Shown here in pieces: positions 171-28,374 of a DNA stretch of 62,984 nt; positions within the stretch are counted from its first letter, which is position 1; the number at the start of each line of letters is the position of its first letter. The translations under genes and the position numbers were made by a program. Origin of the DNA: Verrucomicrobiia bacterium. GTDB lineage: Bacteria; Verrucomicrobiota; Verrucomicrobiia; Limisphaerales; UBA11358. The DNA lies in the NCBI GenBank assembly GCA_035652955.1, contig DASRCU010000206.1, positions 1 through 62,984 on the forward strand. The letters are read 5' to 3'. The notes under the pieces were generated by a model. That model was not told where the DNA came from. It did not search any database and saw only the letters and a program-made list of their open reading frames with translations.

Positions 171-173
171 CGT

Positions 174-5233: not shown

Positions 5234-5272
5234 CAGTAAGATGCGAACGGTGCCAGAAGACATTTGGGTCCA

Positions 5273-5324
5273 GGAAAATGGAACGCCGGCAAAACCGCGG
5301 TATTTCCATTTTCCGGCGGTTTTT
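5273..5324 (+). terminator. Candidate intrinsic terminator after queE
   Basis: GGAAAATGGAA (5273..5283) pairs with TTCCATTTTCC (5304..5314), and an inner CGCCGG/CCGGCG stem is possible. A T5 run follows at 5320..5324. It lies 40 nt after the queE stop. Confidence 0.4.
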
Positions 5325-5387
5325 GAAAAGGCCGGCGGCGAATGCCCGCGGAGGTGCGGCGCCGGGATTTGAATTGCAAATTGCTTT

Positions 5388-6695: not shown

Positions 6696-6954
6696 AACCA
6701 TTCCGACCGCGCCCAATGGCCGGGAACAGCCCTTTCCGAAATTCAAACCGTTTGCTCAACCCGAGCTTCCGAAGCAAAGCCACCGCCCGGCGGCCGCATT
6801 TTCTCATTGATTGCAAGCTTGGGAAGGTAGCAGCCGGACATCGGCTCCCGGAATTTGCCGGCAGCCGGGAAATCAAAGCAGCTCCCCGCATTTCTCATCG
6901 CCTCCGCTGATTGCTACCGGCCGTTGAGTTCGCCAAACGATTTCCGCCGGCAAA

Positions 6955-8169: not shown

Positions 8170-8253
8170 GCCGTCATTCTCACGCAAAAACGGGGGAGCG
8201 GAAAGAGAAATTTGACAGCCCGTTAAAAAAGTCTGTCGTGTGATCGAACCCGT

Positions 8254-8480
8254 TTGGGGATGAATCGTTCGATGAACCTGGCGTTGAACCTGGCGTTCGG
8301 CAAACGCAAATCCGAACAGGATGAACTGTTCATCCCCACAGCAAAAGCGGCCAGCAGCCACGGCCATCCGTTCTACGCCAGACTCAACCACGTATTAGCC
8401 GAAACCGGCTTTGATGAATTTGTCGAGAAGCTGTGCGCGCGGTATTACAAGGAAGGGGTCGGTCCGGAATTTCAGCCCCT
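8254..8480 (+). pseudogene. N-terminal fragment of an IS4/IS5-like (DUF772-type) transposase
   Basis: ...[47 protein letters not shown]... matches the conserved N-terminal region of this transposase class. It breaks off before the GRPS motif and runs into an IS3 fragment in the same reading frame. Confidence 0.5.
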
Positions 8481-8484
8481 TCCC

Positions 8485-8815
8485 ATTGGAGCGTTCCATC
8501 CACCCGTCGCGTCGCGGGCGCGCTACTGGCCGGTTAAAATAGCGCCCCGTATGAGTCGGCCCGCCAATTCCTACGGCCATGCCACGGCTGAATCCTTCAT
8601 GGCTACCCTTAGAACCAAATGCTTGGAATAAACATCCGCTTCGCGCACTGAAGCCAGATTAAATGTGTTCGATTACCTGGAAAACTTTTAGAACTCCAAG
8701 CGGCTCCACCGCGCCTTGGGCTACAAGTCACCTGTGGAATTTGAAAACCAGCTCGTTAAACGACAGCAACAAATCCGCCAAAAGCCCCATCCGCGCTTTC
8801 GAAGAAAGATCAACA
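8485..8815 (+). pseudogene. C-terminal fragment of an IS3-family transposase (OrfB/rve), with in-frame stops
   Basis: ...MSRPANSYGHATAESFMATLRTKCLE*...ARLNVFDYLENF*NSKRLHRALGYKSPVEFENQL reproduces the IS3 integrase-core tail (compare SR.GN.YDNA.AESFF.TLK.E ... VFDYIE.FYN.KRLHSALGY.SP.EFE). In-frame stops occur at 8629 (TAA) and 8689 (TAG). Confidence 0.7.
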
Positions 8816-9064
8816 GTGATCGGCGCCGATAAGAGCTTCAATGGCGTTCTGCCAGGTGCGGGGCTTCATGCCGTTGTCCGAACCGGCCAGATACGCCTTG
8901 GCGATTTGGAGATTCAGCACCGGCTGGCGCGTGGAATTGTTCTTGGCTTCGATGATCTGGCGCGCCTCGTCTTCGTTCGTGGTGCCCAGGCGGGTGCGTA
9001 TGCCAGTCGTGGTGTCCACGCAATATACAGGCAACCTCGAATGCCCCGACAGATTAAGCGACAA
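8810..9064 (-). pseudogene. N-terminal remnant of a tyrosine recombinase (phage-type integrase)
   Basis: The 84-aa ORF ...PVYCVDTTTGIRTRLGTTNEDEARQIIEAKNNSTRQPVLNLQIAKAYL...RTWQNAIEAL resembles the N-terminal arm/SAM-like region of island integrases. No catalytic domain follows, and the ORF abuts the IS3 fragment. The assignment rests on pattern recall only. Confidence 0.45.
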
Positions 9065-9250
9065 CGTGTTTTCATAATTTTCTCACGTAACCGCGAAGAT
9101 AAAATGAACTGACTCCGAACTGTTAGCGCGTAGCGGGCGAGTTACCCGGAGTTACGCTGGGTTCTTTCGGAGTTGGAAAACGGGTGTCCGCTTTGGCATC
9201 TGTTGCGGATCTCTCCGTCACCAAACCCTTGTAAATAAAGGCGTTTTATT

Positions 9251-9270
9251 TGGAGGTGGAGGTTGGAATC
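9251..9270. repeat. Partial copy of the 3' end of tRNA-Cys (att-like direct repeat)
   Basis: TGGAGGTGGAGGTTGGAATC (9251..9270) matches TGGAGGCGGAGGTCGGAATC (23429..23448) at 18 of 20 positions on the same strand. The latter is the 3' acceptor/T-arm end of the minus-strand tRNA-Cys. Confidence 0.65.
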
Positions 9271-9452
9271 TGGCTTCGACTCACACTACCTGTTGTATGA
9301 ATGCCATTTTTTATAGAGAACTAAATCGTAACCGGGAGTAACAGCAGGTGAACTTTTCGTAACAATCACTGGCAATTTCACCGGCAATTTTTCGCCGCTC
9401 TATTACCGCTCTTGCAGGTGCATCGTATCTGACTATGATTTGTTCCGCTGTC

Positions 9453-9530
9453 GGCGGGGGGCTAGCCAAGTGGTAAGGCAGGGCTCTGCAAAAGCCTCAT
9501 TCACCAGTTCGATTCTGGTCCCCGCCTCCA
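9453..9530 (+). tRNA. tRNA-Cys(GCA), structurally aberrant (possible pseudo-tRNA)
   Basis: Perfect 7-bp acceptor (GGCGGGG/CCCCGCC), anticodon stem GGGCT/AGCCT with loop CTGCAAA, T-arm ACCAG-TTCGATT-CTGGT and a 3' TCCA. However, 5 nt (GGCTA) rather than 2 lie between the acceptor and D stems. Confidence 0.7.
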
Positions 9531-9691
9531 TAATTGGTATCACCTGCTTACAGCAAGGCGGTTAGTTTTATTCGTTAATAAAATACCTGCTCAAGCGTAA
9601 CAAGAACCTACTATGGCCATTCAATTTTAAGAGGTTAGGTGTCCGCGAAGTCACAAAACAAGCACAGCGCAGTGAAAATTCCAGCAGCAAC

Positions 9692-10285
9692 TCAAGAGCC
9701 GTCCCAATCATCAGCCGCCTGAATAAAGTCCTCCATGGTGTTTGTGTTTCGATAAAATGCACGTTCCGATTTAGAGATCGAATGGAATCGAACCTGCCGC
9801 TCGCCGGCAACATGTCGAATAAAATTATGCAGCGAAGCATTAATATCAGCGGCCGCTTTTTGGACTGCCTCTCGAATTTCCACAGGATATATCGCGCACA
9901 ACGGCTCGAAATGTTCCGCGTTTCGCGGAACTACGGCAACGCCTGCATCGGCCATGGACCAGAGTTTTTCAAGATGCGCCACCGGCATTTGAGGCAAATC
10001 AACAGCCAACGCAAGCAAATGGGTTGTCTGAATTCTTTGAATCACCGCTGCCAAACCGCTCAACGGTCCGCGCGATGGCGGTTCATCCAAAACAACTTCG
10101 ATTTCCGGCGGACACCAAACAGGTTTAGTTCGCGCGGAAATCAAAATTTTCTGCGGCTGTAATTCACGCAGGGTTTTTAACTGTCGCAACCACAGCGGCT
10201 CACCGTTAATTTCGAGCGTTGCTTTGTCTCTGCCCATGCGACGCGATTCGCCGCCGACAAATAAAACTGCTGTCAGCGTTTTCAT
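9692..10285 (-). CDS. mobA: Molybdenum cofactor guanylyltransferase
   Basis: MKTLTAVLFVGGESRRMGRDKATLEINGEPL... is the MobA N-terminal LAGG.S.RMG.DK signature, and the ~197-aa length fits. The ATG at 10285 overlaps the upstream stop (ATGA). Confidence 0.9.
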   Translation of the reverse strand: MKTLTAVLFVGGESRRMGRDKATLEINGEPLWLRQLKTLRELQPQKILISARTKPVWCPPEIEVVLDEPPSRGPLSGLAAVIQRIQTTHLLALAVDLPQMPVAHLEKLWSMADAGVAVVPRNAEHFEPLCAIYPVEIREAVQKAAADINASLHNFIRHVAGERQVRFHSISKSERAFYRNTNTMEDFIQAADDWDGS

Positions 10286-10491
10286 TTTTCCAAGCGCAGT
10301 TTGCCATCGCTCAAAATCTGCGCACGCAAGCCGCCGCGATTTTGCAGGAAATGTTCCGCGCCTGGTGCAAATGCTTCGTTCATCCAATGACACGGCGCGC
10401 AATGCGCCGTGCCAAAAAAATTTCCCGGCGGCTCCCCGTGATGGCCGAAGTAATTGTGGCCGGGCGAAATATAGAGATGACAAACCTTCAC
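10282..10491 (-). pseudogene. MOSC-domain gene remnant (N- and C-terminal ends only, in frame)
   Basis: The 69-aa ORF starts MKVCHLYISPGHNYFGHHGEPPGN (N-terminus of a MOSC subfamily). It then jumps to FFGTAHCAPCHWMNEAFAPGAEHFLQNRGGLRAQILSDGKLRLE (the MOSC C-terminus with the conserved Cys and RGG..A.IL motif). About 80 residues of the barrel are missing. Confidence 0.5.
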
Positions 10492-10526
10492 GATTCAAAG
10501 ATGACATTTTTGTTTGCGAAGAAAAA

Positions 10527-12722
10527 TTATTTCTTCATCGGCTCCACGCGCACGGCGCAATATTTGTAATTCGGCTGGCGCGAGTGCGGGTCAAATTCGG
10601 CCCGCGTTAATTTATTGGCGATGCCATAGTGCATTGGAATGAAAACTTGTCCGGGCTGGACGCTTGCCGTTACAAATGCCGCGCATTCCACTTTTGCGCG
10701 CCGGGAAACAATCGCGACTTTTTTGTTCGGCTGAATTTTCAATCGCTTCGCATCCGCCGGATTGATTTCGACGTAGGCGTTCGCCGGATAAAGTTTGCGC
10801 AACACATCGGATTTTTCCGTGCGCGTGTTCGTATGCCATTGCGCGCTCGTGCCGCGGCCGGTCAAAAGCACGAATGGAAATTCCTCGTCAGTTTTTTCCG
10901 ATAATTTCCGCGGCGCCTCAAAAATAAATTTCGCCTTTCTGTCCGGCGTGAAAAACTTTCCATCGGCAAACAGTCGCCGCTCTTTTTCATTTTTCATTTT
11001 TTCCGGCAACGGCCATTGAATTCCGCCTTCCTCATCCAAATGCTTGTAATCGCGGATGCCCGTAATATCGCAGGGCTGACTGGCGCTCAATTTTTTCAAA
11101 ATTTGAAAAACAGCTTCCGGCGAATTCCATTCACGAAACATTTCGCCGCAACCCCATGCGTGCGCGACCAACTTGAAAATGTTGAAATCGCTCAACGCCT
11201 GCCCCGGAGCGCGACGAACTTTTTTCACGAGGCCGATGCGGCGTTCGGAATTGATGAGCGTGCCTTCCTTTTCGCCCCAGCCGGCGGCGGGCAAAAACAA
11301 ATGCGCTCGCTGCGCGGTTTCCGTCGTCGGATACAAATCCTGCACGACGAGAAATTCCAATTTGTCGGCGAGGCGATTAAAATTATTTTGGTCAATCCAC
11401 GAGTGCGAACTGTTCGTTGCCATAATCCACAATCCGCGAATTTCTCCATCGGCAATTCCTTGAACGATTTGGTCGTAAGCCCACGAATTTTTCGATGGAA
11501 TTTTTTCGACGGGGATTTTCAGAACTTCCGCAACTTTTGCGCGATGTTCCGCGTTCAGAAAATCACGCCCAAAAAGACTTGTGATATTTGCAAAAAGCCG
11601 CGAACCCATCGCGTTGCACTGGCCGGTGATGGAATTTGCACCCGTGCCGGGCTTGCCGATGTTTCCGGTCATCAAAGCCAAATTGATAATCGCCTGCGCC
11701 GTGCGCGTCGCTTCGTGACCCTGGTTTACGCCCATCGTCCACCAGAACGAAACCGCCTTGCCGCGATGGATTGTTTCGGCGAATTGCAAAATTTCGTCGG
11801 CGGACAAATTTGTTTCCGCCGCGACTTTCTCTAAAGTGAATTGTCGCGCGAAGTTCGCAAAATCACCAAAGCCGTTTGTGTTTCGTTCTATAAATTCGCC
11901 GTCAATCCAATTATTTTGAATCAGCAGATTTGCAATTCCGTAAAGCAAAATTAAATCCGATTTCGGTTTGAGTGCGACGTGTTGCGTTGCATTCATCGCC
12001 GTTTCCGTGCGGCGTGGATCCACGACGATGATTTGCGGATTCTTTTTGTTCCGCAATACGCGCTGCCACATAATCGGATGTGCGATGCACGGATTTGCGC
12101 CGACAAAAACTAAAACATCGCTCTCCTCAAAATCCGCATAAGTGAAAGGCGGCGCGTCAAAGCCAAAACTTTGCTTGTAAGCCGTGTGCGCGGTGGCCAT
12201 GCACTGCCGCGTGTTCGAGTCGCAATGCAGCGCGCCCATGCCAAATTTCCACAACGCACCGAGCAATGCCATTTCTTCCGTGCAAATTTGCCCGGTGCCG
12301 AGAAATGCGACGCTCTCGTTGCCATGTCGCGCCATGATGTCTTTGAATTTTCCGACGAATAATTTCATCGCCTCGTCCCACGTCGCAGGTTGAAATTTTC
12401 CCTTCTCATTACGGATTAATGGTGTCGTGCCGCGATCCGGCGCGGACAGCGGCGTCAACGCTTCCCAACCTTTTGGACATGCCATGCCGAGGTTAACCGG
12501 ATAATTTCCGTCCGCGCTCAAATTGATGGCTTCGCCGTTTTTCAAATGAATTTTCAAACCGCAGCCGGTCGAACAAAAGCCGCAGGTCATCGTCGTTGTT
12601 GCATCGGGTTTCAAACGGGCGGGAGTTTTGCCGAGACCGAACTTTCCCGGTTCAAGAACAAGTTCACTCGTCAGTGGGCCAGTCCATTCGCGCAAAACAG
12701 GTTTTGGGAATTTTAATTTCAC
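10527..12722 (-). CDS. nasA: Assimilatory-type (NasA/NarB-like) molybdopterin nitrate reductase catalytic subunit, no Tat signal
   Basis: N-terminal CGFCSTGCG...GMACPKG is the 4Fe-4S motif, and the MGD-family body ([32 protein letters not shown]) fits. Context is nrtABCD and mobA. The GTG start overlaps the upstream stop (GTGA). Confidence 0.88.
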
Positions 12723-14440
12723 GCGGTAATTCCTCCCGGCATCTTTCTGGCTGCGCCTGCGCGAAAGAAGACGTAGCGCGCGATAATTTCAGAAATCAAA
12801 GTCGTCAGTGCGAGTGCGCTTGTCCAAATAGCTGCCGTTCCAGCGATGTTGGCGATGGCGAGCAGGCAGAAAATTATCGAGGCGGCGAACAGGATCGTTT
12901 GCATGGAAGCGGTGCGCGGCAATAGTTCGCGGATCGCGCGGGCATTCAAATGAATCGGGCTGTTGAAATTTCCCAGTGCGCCGCGCAGTTCCATTTGTCG
13001 CCAGGCAAATAAAACCAGTTGTAAAACCAACACGACAATCAAAAACGGCTGGACGAAATTAAATTTGGCGAGCCATGCAAATATCGCGCCTGAAAATGTC
13101 GCACCAAGTAAAAATGTAGTTCCGAAAAATGCGCTAAACGAATGGCGCGGCGACCAGCATGCGCGCTTGGTGTCCACATAAACCATGCCGGAAATGAAAA
13201 CGCATCCGAGTCCGATGAATGCGGCAAAAATGGCCAGCGGCAATTGGAATTTTTCAACCGGTGAGAACACCGCGGGGATTTTTTGAAGCAACGATTCCAG
13301 TTTTGGAAATTTTTGAGAAAGAAACGGCAGCCACGCGAGCGCCGTCGCAGCGGCAGCAAATGGAGCAAAAAAATTGAAGGCAATGATTTCACGGCTCAAC
13401 CAACTCGTCCGCCAGCCGAGAAACGCGCGCCAGGCTTTTAACGGTTGCCCTAAATGCAGTGGTGCGGCCAGCAAACCGAAATTCAAAATCACAAACGCGG
13501 CGAGTTCCAAAATTTTTGTTTCAGGCGTTTGAGCAATTGCCGCCGCCAAAAACATTCCTGCGGCGGCTTGTGTGAATACGAGCATGAAAACAAGCGGCCA
13601 GTGCGGATTGTCCAATCGCGGCACGTCGCGGTCGGCGGAAAATATGGTTCCATTCAAATGCCGCTTTGAAAGGTAACGCGTCGTTGGCAGAGTAATTTTT
13701 GGATTCGGCGAATCGGGTAAAAATTTTGTAGCAGCCGATGTGAATCGGCTCTGACTGTTTTCAAAATGAGCGGACTCATGTTCGCTGCTACAGGAACTAT
13801 ATTGCGTCCTGATTTCATCCTGATTTACCAAAGTGATTTTAATCGCGCCGTTCGGACATGATTGCACGCACGCAGGCGCTTCGCCGACCGCGAGGCGGCT
13901 CATGCACATGTCGCACTTGCGGACGATGCCAAGCCTCTCGGAATACTTCGGCACTTCATACGGGCATTTCATCACGCAATACTGGCAGCCGATGCACTGG
14001 TCATCGAGATGCCGGACGATGCCGGTGGCCGGGTCTTTGTCGTAGGCTTTGACGGGACAACCGTTCAAACAGCCGGGGTCAACGCAATGATGGCATGCGC
14101 TCGTGATGGTTTGTTGAAATGATTTTTCATCCGCGATGCCGTGAAGCAATCCGACTTCGCGCCACGTTTCATTTTCGTCGAGGCCGTTGAGCGAATGGCA
14201 ACCGGCCACGCACGCTTTGCAGCCGGAACAAGCGTCGAGATTCACTTCGAACGCGTATTGCTCGCCGGGATTTGGCGAACGCGCGGGCATGAACGCGCGG
14301 TAAAATTTTTCGCCATTTGCATGGCCGTCGCGGTCGTGATGACGCGAAAATTTTTCGACGGCAGTAAGCGTGCGCTGCTCGGCGAGCAGTTCGTCAATCA
14401 ACGTGTGTGCGCTGTCCGAGGCGGCGAAGTCATTCATCAT
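12719..14440 (-). CDS. Fusion protein: DmsB/NrfC-like 4Fe-4S multicluster domain + DmsC/YnfH-type 8-TM membrane anchor
   Basis: The N-terminal half has [37 protein letters not shown] and CDMC...CVQSCP cluster motifs. The C-terminal half has ~8 hydrophobic helices of the DmsC type. No signal peptide. It is translationally coupled to nasA. Confidence 0.85.
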
Positions 14441-14633
14441 TTGTGAAAATGGCCTGCAACGTGTTCAGGTCATTGCGCACGGTGAATTTTTGAAACGATT
14501 CGCCCGACTGCCGGTGGCGCAAATAGTCTTCAACATTTTTTCCAGCGAGCAGACCGGGCATGTAACCGTTCAACCGCAAGCGTTGCTCGTGATTGAACGG
14601 CGCATTTGCCGGAATGAATGGCGCGAGTTGCAA
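14430..14633 (-). CDS. Small ORF (67 aa from TTG, or 43 aa from the internal ATG) wedged between the porin and FeS/DmsC genes
   Basis: It starts 4 nt after the porin stop, and its stop overlaps the FeS/DmsC start by 11 nt (ATGATGAATGA). It contains APFNHEQRLRLNGYMPGLLAG, reminiscent of the CysJ N-terminus and the NasA-CysJ linker, and GESFQKFTVRNDL...L. If it is not coding, the region is a 197-nt gap in an otherwise tight operon. Confidence 0.4.
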   Translation of the reverse strand: MQLAPFIPANAPFNHEQRLRLNGYMPGLLAGKNVEDYLRHRQSGESFQKFTVRNDLNTLQAIFTNDE

Positions 14634-14637
14634 TCGT

Positions 14638-16068
14638 TTAGAAATTGAATTCCACTTGCGCCCAGAATTTTTGGATGTCCACGCCGGACACAGTCAGCGA
14701 TGGCGCCGCCGCGTCCTGCCCCTGGTAGTAGGCGTATTTGACGAGCGCGGTCCAATACTTGCCAAATTTTCTGGACGCAACGACATCGAATTCCTGACCG
14801 TAACCGGCGTTGCCGAAGTCCGCGTCGTATTTATGAAATATGAAGCGCACCGGAATTTGCGCGGGCAAAGTGTATTGTGCGTAGGCATAAAAATCGCGTA
14901 AACCATTCGCGGGTGTGGAAAGAAAAACGTCATCCCAACCGTTGAATGCATGAAGCGTGGCCAGCGGCGTGCGGAACGAAGCGCGTCCGCCGCCTGCACC
15001 AGTGTTCGCGCCGCTGCCAAGGTCTTCGTAGCCCGCGCCGAACGCAAACGGTTTTATGCTCGCACCGGCTTCGAGGTTGTAATACTCCGTTCCATAACGA
15101 AGCAAACTGTCGGCGTAATCGGTCTGCCATGCGAATTCCGCGCGATAGTCGAGCGTGACCTTGTCGCTGACGGGCGCTTGTCCCGCAAAATAGCCGCCGT
15201 AAGTCGCGCAGGAATTGGCCGCGCCCGCCGCATTTTGCAAATCCAGCAAATAGGCATAGCCGACGAATCGTCCATATTTCCAGCCGGAATAGGAAATGTT
15301 GATCAAGTGCGAACGTGAATCAAAATCAGTATTCGCGGCGGGCAACCCCCCGACATTGCCAAAGACGCGATGAACGTCCCAGAGGTAGGCATAATACAAA
15401 TTGAGATGGTCAATCGGTTCGCTGCTCGCGCTCACGGCATCGTAGGTTTGCATATTCTGCCGCCAGCCGACGTCGCCGATGAAACGCTGGTTGTCGAGAT
15501 TGATTTGCTGTTCGCCGACTTTCGCCGAAATCCAATTCTCGTAGCTGTAACCCAGCCACGCTTGATCCAATCTTGTGATTGGCGGGTCGGCGACGACCGG
15601 CCGCGCGCCCTGGCCATTGGAACCCGCGGCGTTGTAATTGTGTTCCGGTCCGAGCACGGAGACATTCACGCCTTCGGCCATTGCCTGAAATCCGTAAAGC
15701 GGCGCGGTCGTGTAACCGACGCGCGTGCGAATCGTCGGCGCGTAAGAATCTTTTGTAATGGCGCCAACGCCTTCTTCATCCGCCTGCTCGTAACGCAAGC
15801 GGACATTGACATTCACCTTGCCTTTGGCGAGCGCACCAGGAATTTCCTTGTTGAAAAATTTACCAATTGGATTTGACGCCGGGGAATTGGTGGCGGACCC
15901 GGCGCTTGCGAGGGCAGCAACCCGGGGTGACGCGGGCGGCATCGGCGGTTGTGCCGTGCCCGCTGCCGCAAAGGGTTTTTGTTGCGCGAAGACGGATGCC
16001 GTGGCGGCAAGAACCAGCGCTCCACCGGTGAGAATTTTTTTTCGATTGTTGGTTTGGATTTTTTTCAT
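14638..16068 (-). CDS. Outer-membrane beta-barrel porin (alginate-export/OprP-like), putative nitrate/nitrite porin
   Basis: Signal peptide (ALVLAATASVFA/QQ), alternating beta-strand pattern rich in Y/G/N, and a C-terminal ...AQVEFNF with terminal Phe. It sits inside the nrt/nas operon. Confidence 0.7.
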   Translation of the reverse strand: MKKIQTNNRKKILTGGALVLAATASVFAQQKPFAAAGTAQPPMPPASPRVAALASAGSATNSPASNPIGKFFNKEIPGALAKGKVNVNVRLRYEQADEEGVGAITKDSYAPTIRTRVGYTTAPLYGFQAMAEGVNVSVLGPEHNYNAAGSNGQGARPVVADPPITRLDQAWLGYSYENWISAKVGEQQINLDNQRFIGDVGWRQNMQTYDAVSASSEPIDHLNLYYAYLWDVHRVFGNVGGLPAANTDFDSRSHLINISYSGWKYGRFVGYAYLLDLQNAAGAANSCATYGGYFAGQAPVSDKVTLDYRAEFAWQTDYADSLLRYGTEYYNLEAGASIKPFAFGAGYEDLGSGANTGAGGGRASFRTPLATLHAFNGWDDVFLSTPANGLRDFYAYAQYTLPAQIPVRFIFHKYDADFGNAGYGQEFDVVASRKFGKYWTALVKYAYYQGQDAAAPSLTVSGVDIQKFWAQVEFNF

Positions 16069-16095
16069 TTGTTTTCAGTTTTCAGGACAAATTTT

Positions 16096-16899
16096 TCAAG
16101 CGGCGTTTGCCAAATTTGATTTCCTGTGCGCGCGTTCTTCGAGAAACGTGATGAGATGTTCGCGGCAACGGTAGTATTCGGAATTTTCCAGCAACGCGGT
16201 GCGGTTGCGCGGACGCGGAAATGGAATTTGTAAAATATCACCGACTCCGGCGGCGGGGCCGTTGGTCATCATCACCACGCGGTCGGCGAGAAAAATGGCT
16301 TCATCCACGTCGTGTGTGACCATCAAGGCGGTGAGCTGTGTCCGGCTCCACACATCGAGCAATACCTGTTGAAGTTCGAGCCGCGTCAATGAATCGAGCA
16401 TTCCGAATGGCTCGTCGAGCAGCAGCATTTTTGGCGAGAGCGCAAACGCGCGAGCGATGCCGACGCGCTGGCGCATTCCTTGCGAAAGTTCCGCGGGTTT
16501 TTTGTTCATCGCGTCGCCGAGACCAACAACCGTCAAATAATATTCCGCAATCTGACGCCGCTCGGTTTTGCTCGCGGTGAAAAAAACCTGGTTGACGCCG
16601 AGCATCACATTGTCAAACGCTGACATCCACGGCAGCAAACAAGGCGATTGAAAAACCACACCACGATCAGGACCCGCGCCGTTCAGTTCTTTTCCAGCCA
16701 AAATAATTCCGCCGCCGGAAATTTCGTTTAGCCCCGCGAGCATGGAAAGTACGGTGCTTTTGCCGCAACCGGAATGGCCGATGAGCGCGACGAACTCGCC
16801 CTTTTTGACGCGCAAATTGAAATCCTGAACGATGACCGCCGGGCCTTTCGGCGTCGGATAAATTTTCGCAAGATTGTCTATGACGAGATATTCGCTCAT
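16096..16899 (-). CDS. nrtD: Nitrate/nitrite ABC transporter ATP-binding protein
   Basis: Walker [29 protein letters not shown], signature LSQGMRQRV and Walker B LLLDEPF. This matches the NrtD/CmpD family pattern. Confidence 0.9.
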
Positions 16900-17807
16900 G
16901 CGTCCGCCTCCACGCGCTTGATTTCGCGGCGGCGAACCGGCTTCGTGCGATCGCCGAACGTGGCACGCGGAATCGCAAGGTCATCCGGCTCGATGTCCGG
17001 CAAAATTAATTTTTTCGTAATCGCCGTTTGCCGCTGGCCTTTGGAATTCAGCAAGAATTCAATAATCTCGCGCCGCAATTGCTTGAAATGCGGGTCGTGA
17101 TTGATGCCTTTGCGGTCGCGCGGACGCGGAATTTCGATTTGAAACGACGGCCCCAAAGTCGCGTTCGGTCCGGCGGTCAGCGGAATAATTCTGTCGGCCA
17201 AATAAATTCCTTCGTCGGGATCGTTCGTAATCATCACGATGGTTTTTTTGTCTTCCAACCAAATGCGGGAAATTTCGTCCTGCAACGTCGCGCGCGTCAG
17301 CGCATCGAGCGCGGAAAGCGGTTCGTCCAGCAAAAGAATTTGCGGATCCATCGCCAGCGCACGCGCCACGGAAACGCGCTGCCTCATCCCGCCGGAAAGT
17401 TCGCGCGGTTTTTTGTCGCGCGCCGCAGTGAGATTGACCATCGCGATGTATTTTTCGACGTGCTGCTTTTTCTTTTCCGCCGACCAGTTCGGATTTACTG
17501 ATTCCACCGCGAGTAAAATGTTTTCAAAGACCGACAGCCACGGCAGCAGCGAATAATTTTGAAAAACAATTCCGCGGTCCGGACCGGGTTCAGTGATTTC
17601 CAAATCATTCAACGTAAGCATGCCGGAATCCGGTTTGATCAAACCGGCAATGAGCGAAATCAACGTCGTTTTGCCCGCGCCGGAAAAGCCCACGATGGCG
17701 ACGAATTCACCTTTTTCGACACCAAGGTTAATATCGCGCAAGACTTCCGTTCGGCTGCCGCTCGCGCCGTAACCTTTGCTAACGTTTTGAAGTCTGAGAA
17801 ATCCCAT
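16896..17807 (-). CDS. nrtC: Nitrate/nitrite ABC transporter ATP-binding protein
   Basis: Walker [38 protein letters not shown] and [11 protein letters not shown]. It overlaps nrtD by 4 nt and lacks the cyanobacterial C-terminal NrtA-like domain. Confidence 0.9.
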
Positions 17808-17809
17808 GG

Positions 17810-18829
17810 TCAGATGGCTTTGGCGTCGTAACTGACAAGTCGTTGAAGGAGCAGCATCAAACGGTCGAGCGCGAACCCGATGAAGCCGATGGTGAACACA
17901 GCGACCATGATTTGCGCGAGCGTGTCACTGCTGCCGTTTTGGAACATGTCCCAGATGAATTTTCCAAGACCGGGATTTTGCGCGAGCATTTCAGCGGCGA
18001 TCAAAACCATCCAACCCACGCCAAGAGAAAGTCGCAATCCGGTAAAGATGTAAGGCAACGCGGACGGCAAAATGATTTTCCAAATCTGTTTCCACCAGCC
18101 GAGCTTGAGCACGCGTGCGACGTTGAGATAATCCTTGTCAATCGAAGCGACGCCGAGCGCGGTGTTGATGAGCGTCGGCCAAAGCGAACACATCGCGACC
18201 GTGATGGCCGAACTCAAAAATGCTTTTTCAAACCACGGATGCGGTGGATTATAGAGCGCGCTGACCATGATCATCACAATGGGCAGCCACGCCAGCGGCG
18301 AAACCGGTTTGAAAATCTGAATGAACGGATTAACCGCGTTGAAAAACGGGCGGCTCAATCCGCAAATGATTCCGACCGGCACGGCAATCAATGAGCCGAT
18401 GAGAAACCCGGTGAACACAGTCTCCAGGCTCGTGCAAATCTGGTCGAAGTAAGTCGGCGGACCGGAGTATTTAATGTCAGGGAAAGTTTGTCCGGGATTT
18501 TTTGCGAGAAAATCCGCACGCCGCTTGGCGAGTTCCTGATAAAATTCCGTTTCCTTCTGGCGCTCGGCCCAGTGCGCATCCCACAAGACTCCAGCTTGTT
18601 TCCAAACGGCCATCGGGCCGGGAATTGAACCGAAGTTGACTTTGACGTGCGACGCGACCTGCGACCAGATGAAAAGAAAAATCGCGAAAGAAATTAAGGG
18701 TGCGCCAATCGCAGAAAAAATTTTCCGCAGCCTTTCATCCGTTTCGCGGTTCGTGCGGACAGGCGGTTTTTGAGGAATAGTCGGAGCCTTTTCCATGACT
18801 GCTTCAACGTTGGCAACAGCTTCGTTCAT
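17810..18829 (-). CDS. nrtB: Nitrate ABC transporter permease
   Basis: 339-aa polytopic protein with the NrtB/CmpB-type long N-terminal extension and a BPD-transporter core (...[17 protein letters not shown]...). Confidence 0.9.
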
Positions 18830-18838
18830 GAATTTGAT

Positions 18839-20224
18839 TTAATCTTTCAGCCCCACTTTGAATTGATTGAGATAATCATTCGGTTTGCGGCCATCGAATG
18901 TAATGCCGTCAATGAAATTGCTGTCCGGCGCTTTAAAGCCGTCGGTTTCCGGAACATCGGTGGATTTGATTTTGCCCTCGGCGATCAACGCCTTTGCCGC
19001 CTGCAAATAAATTTCCGGGCGATAAATTTTTTTTGCCGTTGCCGCATACCATTCATCCGGCTTGGCCTCGGCGATTTGTCCCCAGCGGCGCATTTGCGTG
19101 AGAAACCAGATGCAATCGCTGTAAAACGGATAGGTCGCGTCATAACGGAAGAACACATTGAAATCGGGCAATGAACGTTTGTCGCCTTTTTGATACTCGA
19201 ACGTGCCGGTCATGCTGTTGGCGATGACTTTTTCGTCTGCGCCGACGTATTGCGGCTGCGACAAAATCCGGCAGGCCTTGACGCGATTGTCGTGGCTGGC
19301 ATCGAGCCATTGGCCGGCGCGAATCAACGCCTTCACGACCGCAATAAGTGTCTGTGGATTTTTTCCGGCCCACTCTTCCGTGACGCCAAAAACTTTTTCG
19401 GGATTATTTTTCCAGATTTCGTAATCGGTGATGACCGGGACGCCGATGCCTTTGAAAACCGCCTGCTCGTTCCACGGCTCGCCGACGCAGTAACCGCAAA
19501 TGGTTCCCTGCGCGAGCGTCGCGGGCATTTGCGGCGGCGGCGTGACCGAGAGCAAAACGTCGGCGTTCGTCGTGCCGGTCGTGTCACCGTTGATGTAATA
19601 ACCGGGACTGATTCCGGCGGCGGCGAGCCAGTAACGTAAATAGTAATTGTGCGTGGAAACGGGGAACACCATTCCGAATTTCAGCGGCGTTCCGGCGTCC
19701 TTATTGCGTTTCACGATCAGGGCGAGCGCGGACGCGGAAATCGGATGGGGCGGTTGCGGCACGTTCAATTTCGGGTCGGCTTCCTGCATTTGTTTCCAGA
19801 GGTCGTTGGAAACGGTGATGCCGTTGCCGTTCAAATCCATGCTGAACGGTGTGATGACATTTGCCTTCGTGCCGATGCCGATGGTCGCGGCAATGGGCTG
19901 ACCGGCCAGCATGTGCGCGCCGTCCAATTCGCCGCTGATGACGCGGTCGAGTAAAATTTTCCAATTCGCCTGCGCTTCGAGCGAAACGTAAAGTCCTTCG
20001 TCATCGAAATAGCCGTTCTCCTTTGCGATGACCAGCGGCGCGCAATCGGTCAATTTAATGAAACCGAATTTGAGCACGGGTTTTTCCACGGTGACGCCCG
20101 CAGCGCGCAACGCCAGCGGATGCAACGCGCCAAGCGCCGCGCCTGCCAGCACGCCTTTGGCCGTGGTTTTGAGAAATTGCCGACGCGTCGTTTCGCGGAA
20201 ATTGGAACTTAATTTTGAATTCAT
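18839..20224 (-). CDS. nrtA: Nitrate ABC transporter substrate-binding protein with Tat signal
   Basis: Twin-arginine [10 protein letters not shown], then [22 protein letters not shown]...[15 protein letters not shown], which is typical of CmpA/NrtA. Confidence 0.9.
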
Positions 20225-20252
20225 TTCGGTAAAAATTTTTCAAATTGAACCA

Positions 20253-21107
20253 TCAGGCTTGAAGCAATTCTTCCGGCGAAGCAGCGGCGGTGGGCACAGC
20301 AATTGCCGCCGCGGATTTTTCTTTTTGAGGCGAATATGTCCAATAGAGAAAAAGTCCCGTGAAGAGAAATCCGCCGATGAGATTGCCGATGGTCACGGGA
20401 ATCTGATTCCAAATCCACCAACCGGCCAGCGACACTTTCGCGCCAAGCATCATGCCGGTCGGAATGACGAACATATTGACTACCGAGTGCTCAAAACCTT
20501 GCGCAAAGAACGTCAGAATCGGCAGCCACATGGCGACGATTTTGCCGACGGTGGATTGCGACGTCATCGCCATCACCAGGCCGAGGCAGACCATCCAATT
20601 ACACAAAATGCCTTTGACGATCACCGTAATCATGCCCGCTGTGCCGTGTGCGGCATAAGCGGTTGTCTTGGCTTCGGCAATGGCGACAATTTTGGCCGCG
20701 ATACCCGTTGGCGCTTCGCTGCCGCAACTCGTCAGTACCGCGTAAAGCAGCACGCCATAAATCAAACTGCCGATGAGATTGCCAACAAACACCCAAAATA
20801 AATTGGCGAAGACCCGTCGCCAGTTGTGGCGGCCAGCCACGCCCGCCAGCATCACCACGGCAAAGCTGCCGGTGACAAGTTCAAGGCCAAGCAGCACAAT
20901 CATCACGAAGCCGACGGGAAAAATCAGCGCGCCCACGAGCGGCACGCCGGTTTGCGCGGCGGCAGTGATGGCAAGGCTCGTGGCAAATCCCAGCAGCGCG
21001 CCGGACAAAATGCCGCGAATCAGCAGGTCTTTGATTGGCAGCCCGGCTTTGTTATCGCCGACGGCAAGCATGCTTTTCACAACTTCGAATGGTTTGATGT
21101 AGTCCAT
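20253..21107 (-). CDS. Formate/nitrite transporter (FNT) family channel, putative nitrite channel
   Basis: MDYIKPFEVV...LIRGILSGALLGFAT...FPVGFVMIVLLGLELVTGS... shows FocA/NirC-type motifs. I trimmed the track ORF to the ATG at 21107. Confidence 0.9.
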   Translation of the reverse strand: MDYIKPFEVVKSMLAVGDNKAGLPIKDLLIRGILSGALLGFATSLAITAAAQTGVPLVGALIFPVGFVMIVLLGLELVTGSFAVVMLAGVAGRHNWRRVFANLFWVFVGNLIGSLIYGVLLYAVLTSCGSEAPTGIAAKIVAIAEAKTTAYAAHGTAGMITVIVKGILCNWMVCLGLVMAMTSQSTVGKIVAMWLPILTFFAQGFEHSVVNMFVIPTGMMLGAKVSLAGWWIWNQIPVTIGNLIGGFLFTGLFLYWTYSPQKEKSAAAIAVPTAAASPEELLQA

Positions 21108-21131
21108 AGTTTTATTTGGTTGATGGTTTGC

Positions 21132-21208
21132 CTCACGCAACGGGCGCGAAGGACGCAAAGGAATTTTTATTTTCAAAACCTTTGCGGCCTTCGCGCTCTT
21201 TGCGTGAG
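21132..21208. promoter_or_regulatory. 77-nt near-perfect hairpin (30-nt arms, 17-nt A/T loop) 25 nt upstream of the FNT start
   Basis: Arm 21132..21161 against arm 21179..21208 gives 27 of 30 Watson-Crick pairs plus one G-U when folded. The loop is AATTTTTATTTTCAAAA. The NasS-like ORF stop lies inside the left arm. Confidence 0.6.
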
Positions 21209-21720
21209 ATTTCTTTCGCTTTGTTGAAAATGTCCGCGCGGAAAACTTTTTTACCGAGCGCGAAAGTTAAAGCGCTGGCGTCCTTGCAAAGTCCGCTGTC
21301 ACGCAAATGTTGAATGACCCACGCGGCTTTTTTGCCGTCCGGCTCGTTCGCGTCGTCGCGTGAAAAAATTGTAAAATCAGGCACGGTGCGTGTGAGGTCG
21401 TGACCGAAATCAAATTCGCCGCTCAAACCGCGGCGCAACGCCATTTCCGACGCGCCAACATATTCGCGCCGCGCCAGCGTGGCGGCAAAGGGCATTCCGG
21501 CGACGGCGTGCACGGCGTCCAATTCGCCGTAAATGACTTTGTCGCGAATCGTCGCCCAGCCGAGTTCGCGGTTCAAAACAACGTTGAGTCCGAATTTTTT
21601 GAACAGGCCAAGTTCCTGCGCCATCACCAGCGGCGCGCAGTCGGTCAGCGGCACGAAGCCGAGCCGCAATTTGTTGGATTGCGGACCTGAAGTTTTGGCA
21701 ATGGATATTTTTTTTATCAC
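21133..21720 (-). pseudogene. NasS/NrtA-like nitrate-binding protein gene with a large in-frame internal deletion
   Basis: Residues ~17-80 ([23 protein letters not shown]...GELDAVHAVAGMPFAATL) align with the start of the window's own NrtA. The sequence then continues directly with the C-terminal region (REYVGASEMALRRGLSGEFDF...VPDFTIFSRDDAN..., compare Nrt[22 protein letters not shown]...[13 protein letters not shown]). About 225 residues are missing and there is no signal peptide. Confidence 0.55.
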
Positions 21721-21821
21721 GCACGGCGAATTTCATCGCCGCGCCAAGATTAGCGGCGAACGTGCCATGTTAGATTTTTGGCGCGATGAATGCCCTGCGT
21801 AATGCGCATGGAAAAAATGAA

Positions 21822-22315
21822 GTGGATTCATACAGGAACACTCCGCTTGACAGCAGGCAGTTGCGCGCGTTTTGTGTTCTGGCGCGCACCGGCAGCTTTA
21901 CGCAGACCGCGTGAACTTCATTTGACCCAATCGGGCATCAGCCACTCGATGAAGGCGCGGGAACGCGACTTGAGCTGTCTGCTTTTGAACAGGTTGGGCA
22001 AAAAAGTGGTGCTGACACAGGCGGGCGAACGACTTTTGCAATCCGCGCAAAAATTTTGCGGGAAATGAACGGCCCGCGGAATTGCTCGGACATCTCGGCA
22101 AATGGGGAAAAGGCTGATTGCGTCCAGGCGCGAGCACGGCGGCCTGCCAGCACATCATTCCGCCGGTATTGCGTGAATTCAAAGAAAGCTTTCCCGAACA
22201 CGCCATCAGTATCGAGCCGAACGACACGCGCGGCGAGCGATTGAATTTGGCAGAAGAAACGTTCATCGGCTTGTGCGAGTTGGCAACCGGTTTGTTTCAG
22301 GGTTCAAAGTTGTAA
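21822..22315 (+). pseudogene. LysR-family transcriptional regulator pseudogene (frameshifts, nonsense codon, truncation)
   Basis: The HTH is readable only across frames: LDSRQLRAFCVLARTGSFTQTA | (shift) RELHLTQSGISHSMKARERDLSCLLLNRLGKKVVLTQAGERLLQSAQK | (shift) ILREMN | (shift) ELLGHLGKWGKG*(TGA)[38 protein letters not shown]. Similarity is then lost. The gene is divergent from the nas operon. Confidence 0.75.
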
Positions 22316-22659
22316 TCTCAATCATTCGTTTTAGCAGCCTGTCATGCCGCGGCAAGCGGCGGACTGGGGAGCGGATTATTTTCTAACATTTGACGAAGGA
22401 CAAAAGAAAATGGCGAAGGCAGTCGGTCTGACAGTAAAAAATTAATGCCTCCGCGTGAACCACCGTTCGATTTTATGACTCGCTGCGCATCGTCAAGGTA
22501 TTGCTCGCCCTGTTGTCCTCTGCACTCCACCTTGACTACGCTTGCGTCGCCAAAAAAACGGCGATTAAGGCTTCACGCGAAAGTGCGCGAAACGCTCCTT
22601 TGTGTGTCCCAATTGGTGCAACTTCAGGCGCAAAACACGCCATTATTTTGTGTGGTCAA

Positions 22660-23227
22660 TCATGAATTTCAGACGGGACGCTTACTCCCAAGGGTTTAGC
22701 CCATATTTCGTCTCGCTAATGACGATTTTGACGCTGGCTTGTCAATTCCGAGACGCCAATTTTGTCATCCGCAAGACGAATCGCTGATGGAAAACCGGAA
22801 CGGCCTGTGTGCCGCCTGGACCCTGCACAATCCGATCGCGCACAGCGAAGCGGCGGCGGCGCTGGCGCCAGTGGACGCTCATCAGGAACTGCATGAGGGT
22901 GTGAACTTCAAAACCCTCGGGGCCGACAAGGGCTATCACCAAAAAGGCTTTGTGCAAGGCTGCCGGGAGCGGGCGATTTCGCCGCATGTGGCGTGCAAAG
23001 AGAGAGTCAAGGTGGCCGGCCTAGACGGGCGCACCACCACGCAGCAGAGTGACCAGATGAGTTTGAAAATCCGCAAGCGGGTGGAGGAAATCTTTGGGTG
23101 GATCAAGACGGTGGGCGGATTTCTGCGGAGCCGGTATCGGGGCCTGGAGCGGACACAGGTCTGGGGCCACTTTGTGGCGGCTAATTACAATCTGTTGCGC
23201 GTGGCGCGATTGGGGGCTGCGGCATGA
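22660..23227 (+). pseudogene. C-terminal fragment of an IS5-family DDE transposase
   Basis: ...DDFDAGL...SLMENRNGL...TLGADKGYHQKGFVQGCRERAISPHVA...RKRVEEIFGWIKTVGGFLRSRYRGLERTQVWGHFVAANYNLLRVARL are conserved IS5-group motifs. The N-terminal half is absent and there is an in-frame stop near 22697. Confidence 0.75.
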
Positions 23228-23428
23228 GTCGCCACGGGAAACCGGGCCAACCCCCGGAGCGGGCGGGCGGCGGGTCACGCCGTGAACCAAAGCGCCGGTC
23301 AGCGGCCACGGTTGGGACAGCCGTTACCACAGTTCCCACGCTGAATTTTGAAAATTTCACACATGAAAAATGCCGGGCCGAAAAATCACCCGTTTTTCAA
23401 CAGCCTGGTAAAATATGGCTTAAAGGCC

Positions 23429-23503
23429 TGGAGGCGGAGGTCGGAATCGAACCGACGAATGGGGCTTTTGCAGAGCCCTGCCTTACCACTTGGCTACCCC
23501 GCC
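23429..23503 (-). tRNA. tRNA-Cys(GCA)
   Basis: The reverse complement GGCGGGG TA GCC AAGTGGTAA GGC A GGGCT CTGCAAA AGCCC CATTC GTCGG TTCGATT CCGAC CTCCGCC T CCA folds as a canonical 75-nt cloverleaf with a GCA anticodon. Confidence 0.92.
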
Positions 23504-23546
23504 GCAACGTTCCGGCAGTTTAGTTGAATTTGTTGCCCTGACAAGT

Positions 23547-23804
23547 TCAATCGGCAAGTAAAAATTCAAACGCCCTTCGCAGTTCCGGTTCGCCCGAGAC
23601 GTGCTTTGGGTTCACGGCGCAAATGGCTGCCTGCCGGTGGTGTGGCCATAAGGTCGGTGGCAGATTGCCCGGCAGGCCGACCATTTTACTGTGACGGCCA
23701 AAGTCCTCGGCAGCGCGTTGCGTCGCTCCACCTGCAAAGTGGTTATCCGCACGGCGCAACAACGCCGGGTTGGCGAAAATGGAGTTACCCGCGTCGTGCG
23801 GCAA
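23547..23804 (-). CDS. Hypothetical 85-aa ORF between rho and tRNA-Cys
   Basis: Open frame with GC-rich third positions similar to neighbouring genes, starting at TTG. I recognise no motif, and it may be non-coding. Confidence 0.2.
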   Translation of the reverse strand: MPHDAGNSIFANPALLRRADNHFAGGATQRAAEDFGRHSKMVGLPGNLPPTLWPHHRQAAICAVNPKHVSGEPELRRAFEFLLAD

Positions 23805-23840
23805 CGTTCCTTAGCCAAACAATTCGAAACCGTGGAAGCG

Positions 23841-25370
23841 TCAGTTGACGCCCATGCTCAGCAGAAACTCAATGTTACTTTTGGTTTTCTTGAGTTTGCC
23901 CAGCAGCAACTCTATGGCTTCGACGGGCGGTACACCGGTGAGGGCGCGGCGCAGGATGACGATGCGACTGTATTCGTCCGGGTGATAGAGCAGTTCTTCC
24001 TTGCGCGTGCCGGAGCGTTCGATGTTGATGGAGGGGAAGATGCGCCGGTCCACCAGCGCGCGGTCCAGGTGCACTTCCATGTTGCCGGTGCCTTTGAATT
24101 CCTCAAAGATGACTTCGTCCATGCGGCTGCCGGTATCCACCAGGGCGGTGGCCATGATGGTGAGCGAGCCGCCTTCCTCAATATTGCGCGCCGCGCCAAA
24201 AAAGCGTTTAGGCTTGTGCAACGCGTTCGCGTCCACGCCGCCGGACAGGATTTTGCCCGAGTGCGGCTGGATGGTGTTGTAGGCGCGGGCCAGGCGCGTG
24301 ATGGAATCCAGCAGGATGACCACGTCGCGTTTGTGTTCGACCATGCGGCGGGCTTTTTCAATGACCATTTCGGCCACCTGCACGTGCCGTTCGGGCGGCT
24401 CGTCGAAGGTGGAGGAGATGACTTCGGCGCCTTTGCAGGTGCGTTCCATGTCGGTGACTTCTTCGGGCCGCTCGTCAATGAGCAGGATAAACAGATAGGC
24501 CTCGGGATTGTTTTTGAGAATGGCGTTGGCGATTTTCTGCATGAGCACGGTTTTGCCGGTGCGGGGGGGCGCCACGATGAGGCCGCGCGTGCCTTTGCCG
24601 ATGGGGCAGACCAAATCCAGCACGCGGGTGTTCAACTCGTCCGGCGTGGTTTCGAGGATGAACCGCTTGTTGGGGAACAGCGGCGTCAGATTGTCAAAGT
24701 GTGTTTTTTCCTTGGCTTTCTCCGGGTCCTCGCCATCCACCGCCTCGACTTTGAGCAGGGCAAAAAATTTCTCTTTTTCCTTAGGGGGGCGGATCTGGCC
24801 GGCAACGATGTTGCCGGTTTGCAAATCGAAGCGGCGGATTTGCGAGGGGGAAACGTAGATGTCCTCCGGGCAAGGGAGGTAATTGAAGCTTTGCGAGCGC
24901 AAAAAGCCGAAGCCTTCGGGCAAAATTTCCAATACGCCCTCGGAAAAGAGCACGCCGGCGCGTTCGGCGTTTTTCTGGAGGAGGTGGAAGATGACTTCGT
25001 GCTTGCGCATCGTGCCAAAATTTTCCACTCCCAATTCCCGGGCCATCTGGTTGAGCTCGGTCATGCTCATGGCCTGGAGCTTGGCGATGTTCAGCGAGGC
25101 GGCAATTTTGTCGCGTTGCGGTCCGCGCGCCGCCGGGGCTTCTTCCTCGGCGGTTGGCTCGACGGGGGCCGAGGGCGGCTGCAAGGCTGTTGACGACGCC
25201 TCGGCGGGAAGGACCGCCGCGTCTTTCTGCGCGTCCGCGGCGGCAGCGGCCTTAACGCTGTCGAGGGTTAATTCGGCGGTTTCGGCGGCGGCGACGGGGG
25301 TCGGGTCCGGCGTTTTGGCCGCCGTTTTGGCGGTTTTCGTTTTTGTTTTTTTCGTTGAAACTCGCGGCAT
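23841..25370 (-). CDS. rho: Transcription termination factor Rho with ~90-aa disordered N-terminal extension
   Basis: [26 protein letters not shown] (N-terminal helix bundle), the CSD-like RNA-binding region GFGFLR, Walker A APPRTGKT, and [12 protein letters not shown]. It is preceded by a K/T/A/P-rich low-complexity region. Confidence 0.95.
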
Positions 25371-25594
25371 AAATCAAATGATTCCAACCGACTGGCGGGA
25401 TTCCGGCTGCCGCGCGGCGTTGGCCTGTCGCAACAGCCATCCGGAATTGGACGGCGGGCGACTGGAAAAGTTCAAAATGGATTCAGTCCATTCGGCGTTT
25501 GAAGCGCTGGTGCCTCAACACGGCAAGGGAAATATCGCAGTCAGTTCGCCGTTACCTTGGCGCATGGGGGCGGCATTGTCAAATTTCTTTTTGG

Positions 25595-26914: not shown

Positions 26915-26928
26915 GACGGGCCGCCAGT

Positions 26929-28344: not shown

Positions 28345-28374
28345 GGGTGCCCACAGACTGAATTTTCCTTGGCC

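Follow-up and report, generated by a model that had tools for sequence, protein, structure and literature searches.

A probable decayed genomic island carrying nitrate-uptake and nitrate-reductase genes at the tRNA-Cys gene of a Verrucomicrobiia bacterium

Classical tRNA-linked genomic islands with P4- or lambda-like tyrosine integrases are known by an intact tRNA gene, a direct repeat of its 3′ end, deviant GC content, an integrase gene beside the tRNA and decay through insertion sequences (IS). The tycheposons of Prochlorococcus are tyrosine-recombinase elements at tRNA genes, with partial tRNAs on both sides and nutrient-uptake cargo, the nitrate-assimilation cluster included, that stack in tandem and contain fragmented integrases (Hackl et al., bioRxiv 10.1101/2020.12.28.424599). 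In streptococci, accretion (reviewed in PMC5704250) brings cis-mobilizable elements (CIMEs), which are flanked by attachment (att) sites and lack recombination genes, into tandem with integrative and conjugative elements (ICEs) that encode an integrase for the shared core. Here we analyze a stretch of 62,984 nucleotides from a Verrucomicrobiia bacterium (Limisphaerales, UBA11358), which is the entire contig C206 (DASRCU010000206.1; hereafter the window) of G000 (GCA_035652955.1), a 3.27-Mb metagenome-assembled genome (MAG) in 323 contigs. It holds nitrate-assimilation (nas) genes flanked on one side by a tRNA-Cys gene and on the other by a direct repeat of that gene's 3′ end. We consider it likely (probability about 0.7) that the segment 9271-23428 is a fossil integrative genomic island (E2), in tandem with an older element (E1), whose cargo came from a lower-GC member of the same genus.

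ARAGORN places the native tRNA-Cys(GCA) at 23429..23503 on the minus strand, and its last 20 nt (23429-23448) form the proximal att core. The gene scores 63.7 bits against the Rfam tRNA model with every pair standard, shares 95-99% identity with its counterparts in genus members and is preceded by a promoter box (TTGAACTTG) that is conserved genus-wide. The second copy of the core (TGGAGGTGGAGGTTGGAATC, 9251-9270, minus strand) matches tRNA nt 56-75 at 18/20 positions on the same strand, as the initial annotation had reported, and marks the boundary between the younger and the older island. Read as the reverse complement of the tRNA, the core takes in half of the T-loop, the 3′ strands of the T-stem and of the acceptor stem, U73 and CCA; both of its differences are CpG-to-CpA changes in the tRNA sense. 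A search allowing up to three mismatches returned only these two matches in the window (0.01 expected from dinucleotide shuffles) and the same two on both strands of the whole 3.27-Mb assembly, which answers the concern that the 20-mer might occur at many unrelated genomic sites. By our own calculation ~2e-4 matches with at most two mismatches are expected in the window, in agreement with the earlier estimate of a chance of order 1e-4. On this evidence the 20-mer is probably a genuine att core, left behind when an element integrated site-specifically at tRNA-Cys.

Both junctions of the segment are homologous to att junctions in relatives, which bears out the earlier proposal that the repeat is the mark of site-specific integration. 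In a genus comparison of 18 genomes at first and later ~60 of the same genus, the minus strand from window position 9270 to ~8800 is colinear with the junctions between tRNA-Cys and integrase in G011, G018, G016 and G015:C31 (75-85% DNA identity). Homology to the tRNA of these relatives begins exactly at position 56, in the T-loop, and the window sequence upstream of that point is unrelated; the distance from the tRNA end to the protein match is 226 nt here and 224 nt in G011. This remainder of E1 (8825..9250, minus strand) comprises an integrase-side arm and ~85 codons from the start of a tyrosine integrase gene (coding 8825-9081, minus strand), whose product is 80-85% identical in amino acids to the integrases of relatives. 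At full length these are tyrosine recombinases of 370-380 aa with the Pfam Phage_integrase domain, and their open reading frames (ORFs) begin ~110-225 nt past tRNA-Cys. The integrase remnant suspected just beyond the distal repeat is therefore real and belongs to the older element. The C-terminal remnant of an IS3-type transposase (8536..8752, plus strand; Pfam rve_3, 2.3e-9, and rve_2, from an X-masked translation), with two in-frame stops, directly adjoins the integrase break point, and an IS3-type insertion probably cut the E1 integrase. Elsewhere in G000 no remnant of this integrase family was found. Since the genome has no intact integrase of the family, excision is expected to be lost.

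On the island side, the core abuts a conserved distal arm of ~115 nt (9271..9385) that includes the blocks CACTACCTGTTGTA and GTGAACTTTTGGTAACAATCACTGGCAATTTCAC. Arm homologues are 71-78% identical with invariant blocks. In G245:C27 and G015:C11 they adjoin the same core; G016:C102 and G236:C61 also keep the arm, next to a degenerate core in the former and without a core in the latter. The order arm, core, integrase in G245 is the order found in the window. Genes beyond the arm vary by genome and include a PAS histidine kinase, a group II intron reverse transcriptase with a phosphodiesterase, and OmpA/TPR/Usp genes. The arm does not appear to be a structured RNA (RNAalifold, −6.7 kcal/mol, no covariation; Rfam matches tRNA only), G000 contains no further copies of the arm or of the IS remnants, and no other integrase family was seen in the partial interiors of the arm-bearing elements of G015, G016, G236 and G245.

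An integrase follows tRNA-Cys in at least nine genus members (G011, G018, G016, G012, G002, G013, G010, G004 and G008), and none lies downstream of it in G014 and G003. Additional partial copies of the tRNA-Cys 3′ end occur in G013 (three), G015 (three), G016, G017 and G022. Because the junctions, the arm and the extra 3′-end copies recur among relatives, tRNA-Cys is a recurrent integration hot spot of the genus, with tandem arrays, and the proposed tandem accretion of two elements at this gene in G000 is supported.

Two of these relatives have arrangements of their own. In G017:C5 (L062, 8946-19249), 15 tRNA genes of mixed specificities, among them a divergent tRNA-Cys, stand in an array 2.7 kb past the same integrase-core junction (core at 10096-10115); an element carrying the tRNA array may have inserted at the same att site. 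Downstream of tRNA-Cys in G004:C3 (L050, 10178-15512), the integrase is split in two frames, and C-terminal integrase fragments recur at two points beyond it, 3 and 4.5 kb away, an arrangement that resembles another decayed tandem array.

The composition of the segment also sets it apart. Over 14,158 bp (9271-23428) its GC content is 53.1%, and its flanks have 59.9% (2001-8400) and 59.5% (23504-29000). Windows of 14 kb across the genome (n = 453) have 60.0 +/- 1.9% GC; 0.7% of them are as low, all on this contig. (G000 as a whole has 60.0% GC, with a standard deviation of 3% among 1-kb windows.) The tetranucleotide distance of the island (0.278; genome, 0.109 +/- 0.034) exceeds that of every tested window. 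Nine intact island genes have a GC content at third codon positions (GC3) of 0.48-0.675, compared with 0.705 +/- 0.062 for the genome (1017 long ORFs). The lower GC between the repeats that the initial annotation described is thus confirmed, and the segment is supported as compositionally foreign. In GC3, island genes and those of the genus member G014 are nearly equal (nrtA, 0.675/0.677; porin, 0.631/0.620; FNT, 0.640/0.623), whereas rho differs by 0.11 (0.771 in G000 vs 0.664 in G014). The nas clusters of other genomes track the GC of their hosts (G014, ~54%; G020, ~65%; G025, ~68%).

The contig as a whole consists of alternating blocks of 60% and 52-53% GC. A second low-GC block (window 29000-43000, 52.2%) equals the nas island in deviance by GC and tetranucleotides. 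It encodes an Ig-domain protein, a prepilin-type protein, an AraC regulator, a 1099-aa protein without a family, an SSF symporter, an enolase-superfamily enzyme, an RraA-like aldolase, an SDR and an SMP-30 lactonase, and an IS630-like HTH_33/HTH_32 remnant (28375-28980) forms its left border. A search for a tRNA or att repeat belonging to this block found neither. A third low-GC stretch (window 1-2000, 46.8% GC) contains a 550-aa ORF (174-1826, minus strand) without a Pfam family and with a GC3 of 0.517.

The gene content listed for the segment in the initial annotation was recovered by Pfam and tblastn. From the distal end, the first protein-coding gene past the arm region is a divergent mobA-like NTP transferase (9692..10279, minus strand; Pfam NTP_transf_3, 2.3e-30), which is 33-43% identical to the mobA of C214, G014 and G003 and has the lowest GC3 of the island (0.48). 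Between mobA and nasA lies a MOSC-domain pseudogene remnant (10288..10527, minus strand), detected by tblastn with MOSC queries from C214, G014 and G003 as two pieces (aa ~7-42 and ~125-199). nasA (10527..12722, minus strand; Pfam Molybdop_Fe4S4, Molybdopterin and Molydop_binding), the sole nasA in the assembly, encodes a molybdopterin assimilatory nitrate reductase that we denote type A. It is followed on the same strand by a fused 4Fe-4S dicluster/DmsC-like membrane anchor protein (12719..14440; Pfam Fer4_11 and DmsC; 62% identical to that of G014) and an outer-membrane porin-like protein (14638..16068; a weak Pfam Alginate_exp match of 24.7 bits, just under the cut-off), which the nas clusters of G014, G007, G018 and the metagenome contig L182 also have in this place. 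Also on the minus strand are the intact ABC nitrate transporter genes nrtD (16096-16899), nrtC (16896-17807), nrtB (17810-18829) and nrtA (18839-20224), with the Pfam families NMT1_2 and BPD_transp_1 and two ABC_tran domains, and an intact formate/nitrite transporter (FNT) channel (20253..21176; Form_Nir_trans, 7.7e-68; 71% to its G014 orthologue). The two regulatory genes are pseudogenes. A NasS-like gene of the G014 type (21136..21720, minus strand) has lost ~175 aa by internal deletion and matches Pfam NMT1_2 only at profile positions 2-74. A LysR-type regulator gene (21744..22300, plus strand) carries frameshifts and an internal deletion of ~aa 150-277; Pfam HTH_1 matches a 92-aa piece of it, and tblastn with the intact LysR of G014, G003 and C214 returns 3-4 pieces in differing frames.

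G014 has the syntenic counterpart of this cargo: nirA, a cysJ-like gene, nasA, FeS/DmsC, porin, nrtDCBA, FNT and intact NasS and LysR, at 62-87% aa identity, in an unrelated context with no tRNA nearby. The nasA of the island is 82% identical to that of G014, 72-73% to those of G020 and G025 and ~35% to the nasA, of type B, that six other genus members carry, and type A is patchy, occurring in 1/18 other genus genomes. After G014, the next relatives of nasA belong to other Verrucomicrobiota (≤72%), and the closest public relatives of nasA and nrtA are Verrucomicrobiota MAGs. Phylogenetic foreignness of nasA, which the initial annotation had anticipated, is not seen in this form: its closest relative lies within the genus, so any transfer was within the genus and the nasA tree would not look incongruent at a coarse scale. 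The nrtABCD proteins are 77-87% identical to those of G014 and 85-94% to those of L182 (~55% GC), which has the closest nrtABCD and porin (75-94% aa) and 81% DNA identity from nrtA to porin. The C-terminal piece of the NasS pseudogene is 80.5% identical to the NasS of G014 vs 53.5% to the intact NasS on C214 of G000 itself. When metagenomes were searched for the island in intact form, the best match was L182, which runs into a type-B nas cluster and stops short of either border.

Some nas cluster is present in at least 8/19 genus genomes, and these clusters are mosaics of modules (L156-L161, L182, L046/L047). Two nasA types, ~35% identical to each other, are paired with closely related nrt and porin modules, and cysJ and nirA stand before or after nasA depending on the genome.

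The segment had been described as holding the whole nitrate-assimilation cluster, and this does not stand. Uptake genes and nasA are present, NasS and LysR are pseudogenes, and no NIR_SIR nitrite reductase was found in the window. G000 has two NIR_SIR genes, on C214 and C102. The C214 gene is probably the nitrite reductase because it adjoins a NasS-like gene; the C102 gene is likely a sulfite reductase. C214 carries intact LysR, MOSC, mobA and NasS-like genes and, cut off by the end of the contig, nirA; C158 begins with a CysJ-like flavoprotein. These native genes are all of native GC (GC3 0.63-0.71), and the native locus has neither nasA nor nrt genes. The island and the native C214/C158 loci are complementary, and the nitrate pathway of the organism can be judged only from the whole genome, not from this cluster.

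The native locus (C214:17952-24148; C158:2-1810) is itself rearranged relative to the type-B clusters of the genus, with LysR followed divergently by MOSC, mobA, NasS, nirA and possibly cysJ; C214 and C158 may abut. For nirA and the cysJ-like gene of this locus, identity to the counterparts in all other nas clusters of the genus is just 45-53%.

A truncated IS5-family element (22782..23411, plus strand) occupies the proximal end of the island, a position that the initial annotation had named as the expected place of an integrase, and ends 17 nt from the tRNA-Cys 3′ end. It retains the C-terminal ~40% of its transposase (ORF 22739-23227; Pfam DDE_Tnp_1, profile positions 68-200 only) and the terminal non-coding end. 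DNA homologues in G003, G227 and G220 start at ~22782 and reach ~23411, and the full-length transposases of relatives (370-380 aa) match the fragment only by aa 223-377. A deletion beside the IS probably removed the integrase of E2. Two other arrangements were considered and rejected. A transposase N-fragment at ~8254-8450 and the C-fragment at 22782-23411 do not form one split IS, in that full-length transposases match the right fragment only. Nor is the segment a composite transposon: the IS5-family remnant is at the right end only, its full-length transposases do not match the scraps at 8254-8800, and the assembly has no other copies.

At the opposite end, ARAGORN identifies a second tRNA-Cys(GCA), inverted and degenerate (9456..9530, plus strand). 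It scores 48.4 bits against Rfam, its pairs 3:70 and 7:66 are non-standard, and it is 87% identical to the native copy; its defect can be described either as two acceptor-stem mispairs or as a 3-nt insertion after the acceptor stem. A survey of 200 genomes of the order for tRNA and arm homologues found no match above 88% to this gene, and of the region 9271-9690 the tRNA part alone matches, at ≤88%. Allowing up to 4-5 mismatches, we found no direct repeat of its 3′ end. By eye, the gene has its own sigma-70-like promoter (TTGCAG, 16 nt, TATGAT; window 9380-9530). A third piece of tRNA-Cys (8779-8802, 19/24) was judged a chance match; by our own estimate ~0.5 chance 12-mer matches are expected in the window.

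The chromosomal setting of the native tRNA-Cys is atypical. In most relatives, including one of another family, the flank upstream of tRNA-Cys is a block homologous to C81:8580-11349 of G000, and C81 continues for 21 kb without any tRNA-Cys. rho adjoins tRNA-Cys in G000 only; among ~15 relatives, none has tRNA-Cys within 1.5 kb of rho, and none of the left-flank genes of the window lies in the 18 kb downstream of rho. Since C81 lacks the tRNA and the rho neighbour is unique to G000, the tRNA-Cys with its promoter and islands has been relocated in this genome, as likewise in G018 and G012. The initial annotation had looked to an empty tRNA-Cys site joining ~9250 to ~23430. No such simple empty site, in which trpB would adjoin rho, exists in the relatives, given that synteny within the genus is poor, too poor for this comparison to serve as a test, and that tRNA-Cys has moved in G000. 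None of the relatives has nas genes at the tRNA-Cys site, and in at least nine members an integrase comes straight after tRNA-Cys, which is the pre-insertion state.

The promoter-like box ~45 nt upstream of tRNA-Cys, (GAAAC)TTGAACTTG ... AATT-TA (window 23504-23560; L048-L056, L065), is kept across the genus and in another family.

We propose the following history. A tyrosine recombinase would have inserted E2 at the 3′ end of the native tRNA-Cys through site-specific recombination over the ~20-nt core, at a site already occupied by E1, an element of the genus-wide type in which tRNA-Cys is followed by an integrase. The arrival of E2 would have moved the core copy and integrase of E1 14 kb away from the tRNA, which constitutes tandem accretion. 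The donor would have been a lower-GC (~54-55%) member of the same genus, and the cargo would have comprised FNT, nrtABCD, porin, FeS/DmsC, nasA, MOSC and mobA, with NasS and LysR. E2 presumably once had its own integrase or used that of E1. Later, an IS5-family element would have inserted 17 nt from the tRNA, and its inner half would have been lost in the same deletion that took the E2 integrase; an IS3-type insertion would have truncated the integrase of E1. The redundant NasS, LysR and MOSC genes of E2 would then have decayed, and the transport and reductase genes would have stayed intact and come to complement the native C214/C158 locus.

Several observations weigh against this history. No integrase, excisionase or other mobility gene was found within 9271-23428, where neither the Phage_integrase profile nor tblastn with integrases of the genus gave a match; the core copy has two mismatches; one integration does not account for the inverted, degenerate tRNA-Cys inside the island; and among relatives none was found to carry this cargo at tRNA-Cys. 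The loss of the C81-like upstream flank implies other rearrangements at the locus, and the source is a 323-contig MAG. In favor of the history, island proteins are more similar to G014 (median 79%) than sampled background genes are (63%; Mann-Whitney p = 0.0035), a comparison in which the background set includes some non-orthologous best hits and the higher identity could partly reflect stronger conservation of the island proteins. It is also conceivable, though improbable, that the segment is of composite origin: the core, the arm and perhaps the second tRNA-Cys would be a backbone, the nas genes would have come separately through homologous recombination with congener DNA or through IS events, and the island would never have delivered nitrate assimilation as a unit. 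The cargo beside the same arm is wholly different between genomes, although variable cargo is normal for island families. The nrt genes are closest to L182 (type B), nasA and FeS/DmsC to G014, and mobA is near neither, yet all 14.2 kb are uniformly low in GC with no native-GC stretch inside. IS remnants stand at both ends and homology to other arms ends at ~9385, before the second tRNA-Cys, but no repeats or IS ends surround the nas genes alone.

An assembly artefact is very unlikely. It would require two co-occurring congeners to have been joined through the 75-nt, 95-99% conserved tRNA-Cys, and possibly through mobile-element scraps at the left, with the island then not beside rho or not in this genome. 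The fragmented MAG (323 contigs), the alternation of contig GC between 60% and 52-53%, and the fit of island GC to lower-GC congeners are all compatible with such a join. The adjacency of rho and tRNA-Cys in this genome only would also be compatible, but C81, with the genus-typical flank, runs 21 kb without tRNA-Cys, which argues that the gene was truly relocated and not mis-joined. At the left junction the 20-nt core with two mismatches is too short for a graph chimera, and each mobile-element remnant occurs just once in the assembly. If the contig were nevertheless chimeric at the tRNA, which is unlikely, the core, the island, the tRNA 3′ end and the 60%-GC left flank would still stand together in one of the two genomes. 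We hold vertical inheritance, by which the nas cluster would be ancestral here, its low GC a matter of gene constraints and the 20-mer debris of the neighbouring integrase element, to be extremely unlikely. The nearest relative of nasA lies in the genus, followed by members of the same order and phylum, and some nas cluster occurs in at least 8/19 genus genomes. However, nas genes elsewhere match host GC, the native C214/C158 nas genes of G000 have a GC3 of 0.63-0.71, no relative has nas genes beside tRNA-Cys, rho or trpB, and the cluster lies between the tRNA and the core, which are precisely the halves of a single att duplication.

The integrated island that we favor, real and well supported, is also an ordinary fossil genomic island, though its documentation is unusually good. 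It illustrates clearly, within Verrucomicrobiota, how a nutrient-acquisition module moves from one congener to another on tRNA-targeted islands, and all earlier stages are still seen in relatives (tRNA-Cys without an integrase, a single island, tandem arrays). Its aftermath is visible as well: mobility genes and redundant regulators decay, and the cargo is retained and works with genes encoded elsewhere. As a doubtful extension of this picture, the genus might host integrase-less or integrase-sharing cargo islands, defined by the tRNA-Cys core and the 115-nt arm and moved in trans by a resident integrase in the manner of CIMEs, and the G000 island might have replaced the native uptake and reductase half of the pathway and now be run by the host NasS and LysR. 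If such complementary decay took place, the island cargo would be under host NasS/LysR control and the host would have kept the half with nitrite reductase and regulators.

Compared with classical tRNA-linked islands, the locus has an intact tRNA with a repeat unique in the genome, real att junctions, deviant composition, absence of the cargo at the same site in relatives and IS-driven decay. An integrase stands by the tRNA in related elements of the genus, whereas the younger element here has none inside it (lost or never had), and its cargo is metabolic and not related to virulence or symbiosis. Because the IS5 remnant occupies its place, the lack of an E2 integrase is probably secondary. 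The locus resembles CIME/ICE accretion in having an att-flanked element (E2) without an integrase that adjoins an integrase remnant (E1), but the neighbouring integrase is cut to ~85 codons, and conjugation genes are lacking. Because this integrase is truncated, mobilization in trans is now impossible. The closest analogue is the tycheposon, with its att sites at tRNA genes, partial tRNAs, tandem stacking, fragmented integrase and nitrate cargo. The host here belongs to Verrucomicrobiota, the island has no nitrite reductase and hence only part of the pathway, and no integrase, helicase or primase domain occurs among the island ORFs, and so we claim a likeness in the mode of working, not membership. 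The view of nitrate assimilation as a plug-in cassette, drawn from the tycheposons of Prochlorococcus, is on this evidence not limited to marine cyanobacteria.

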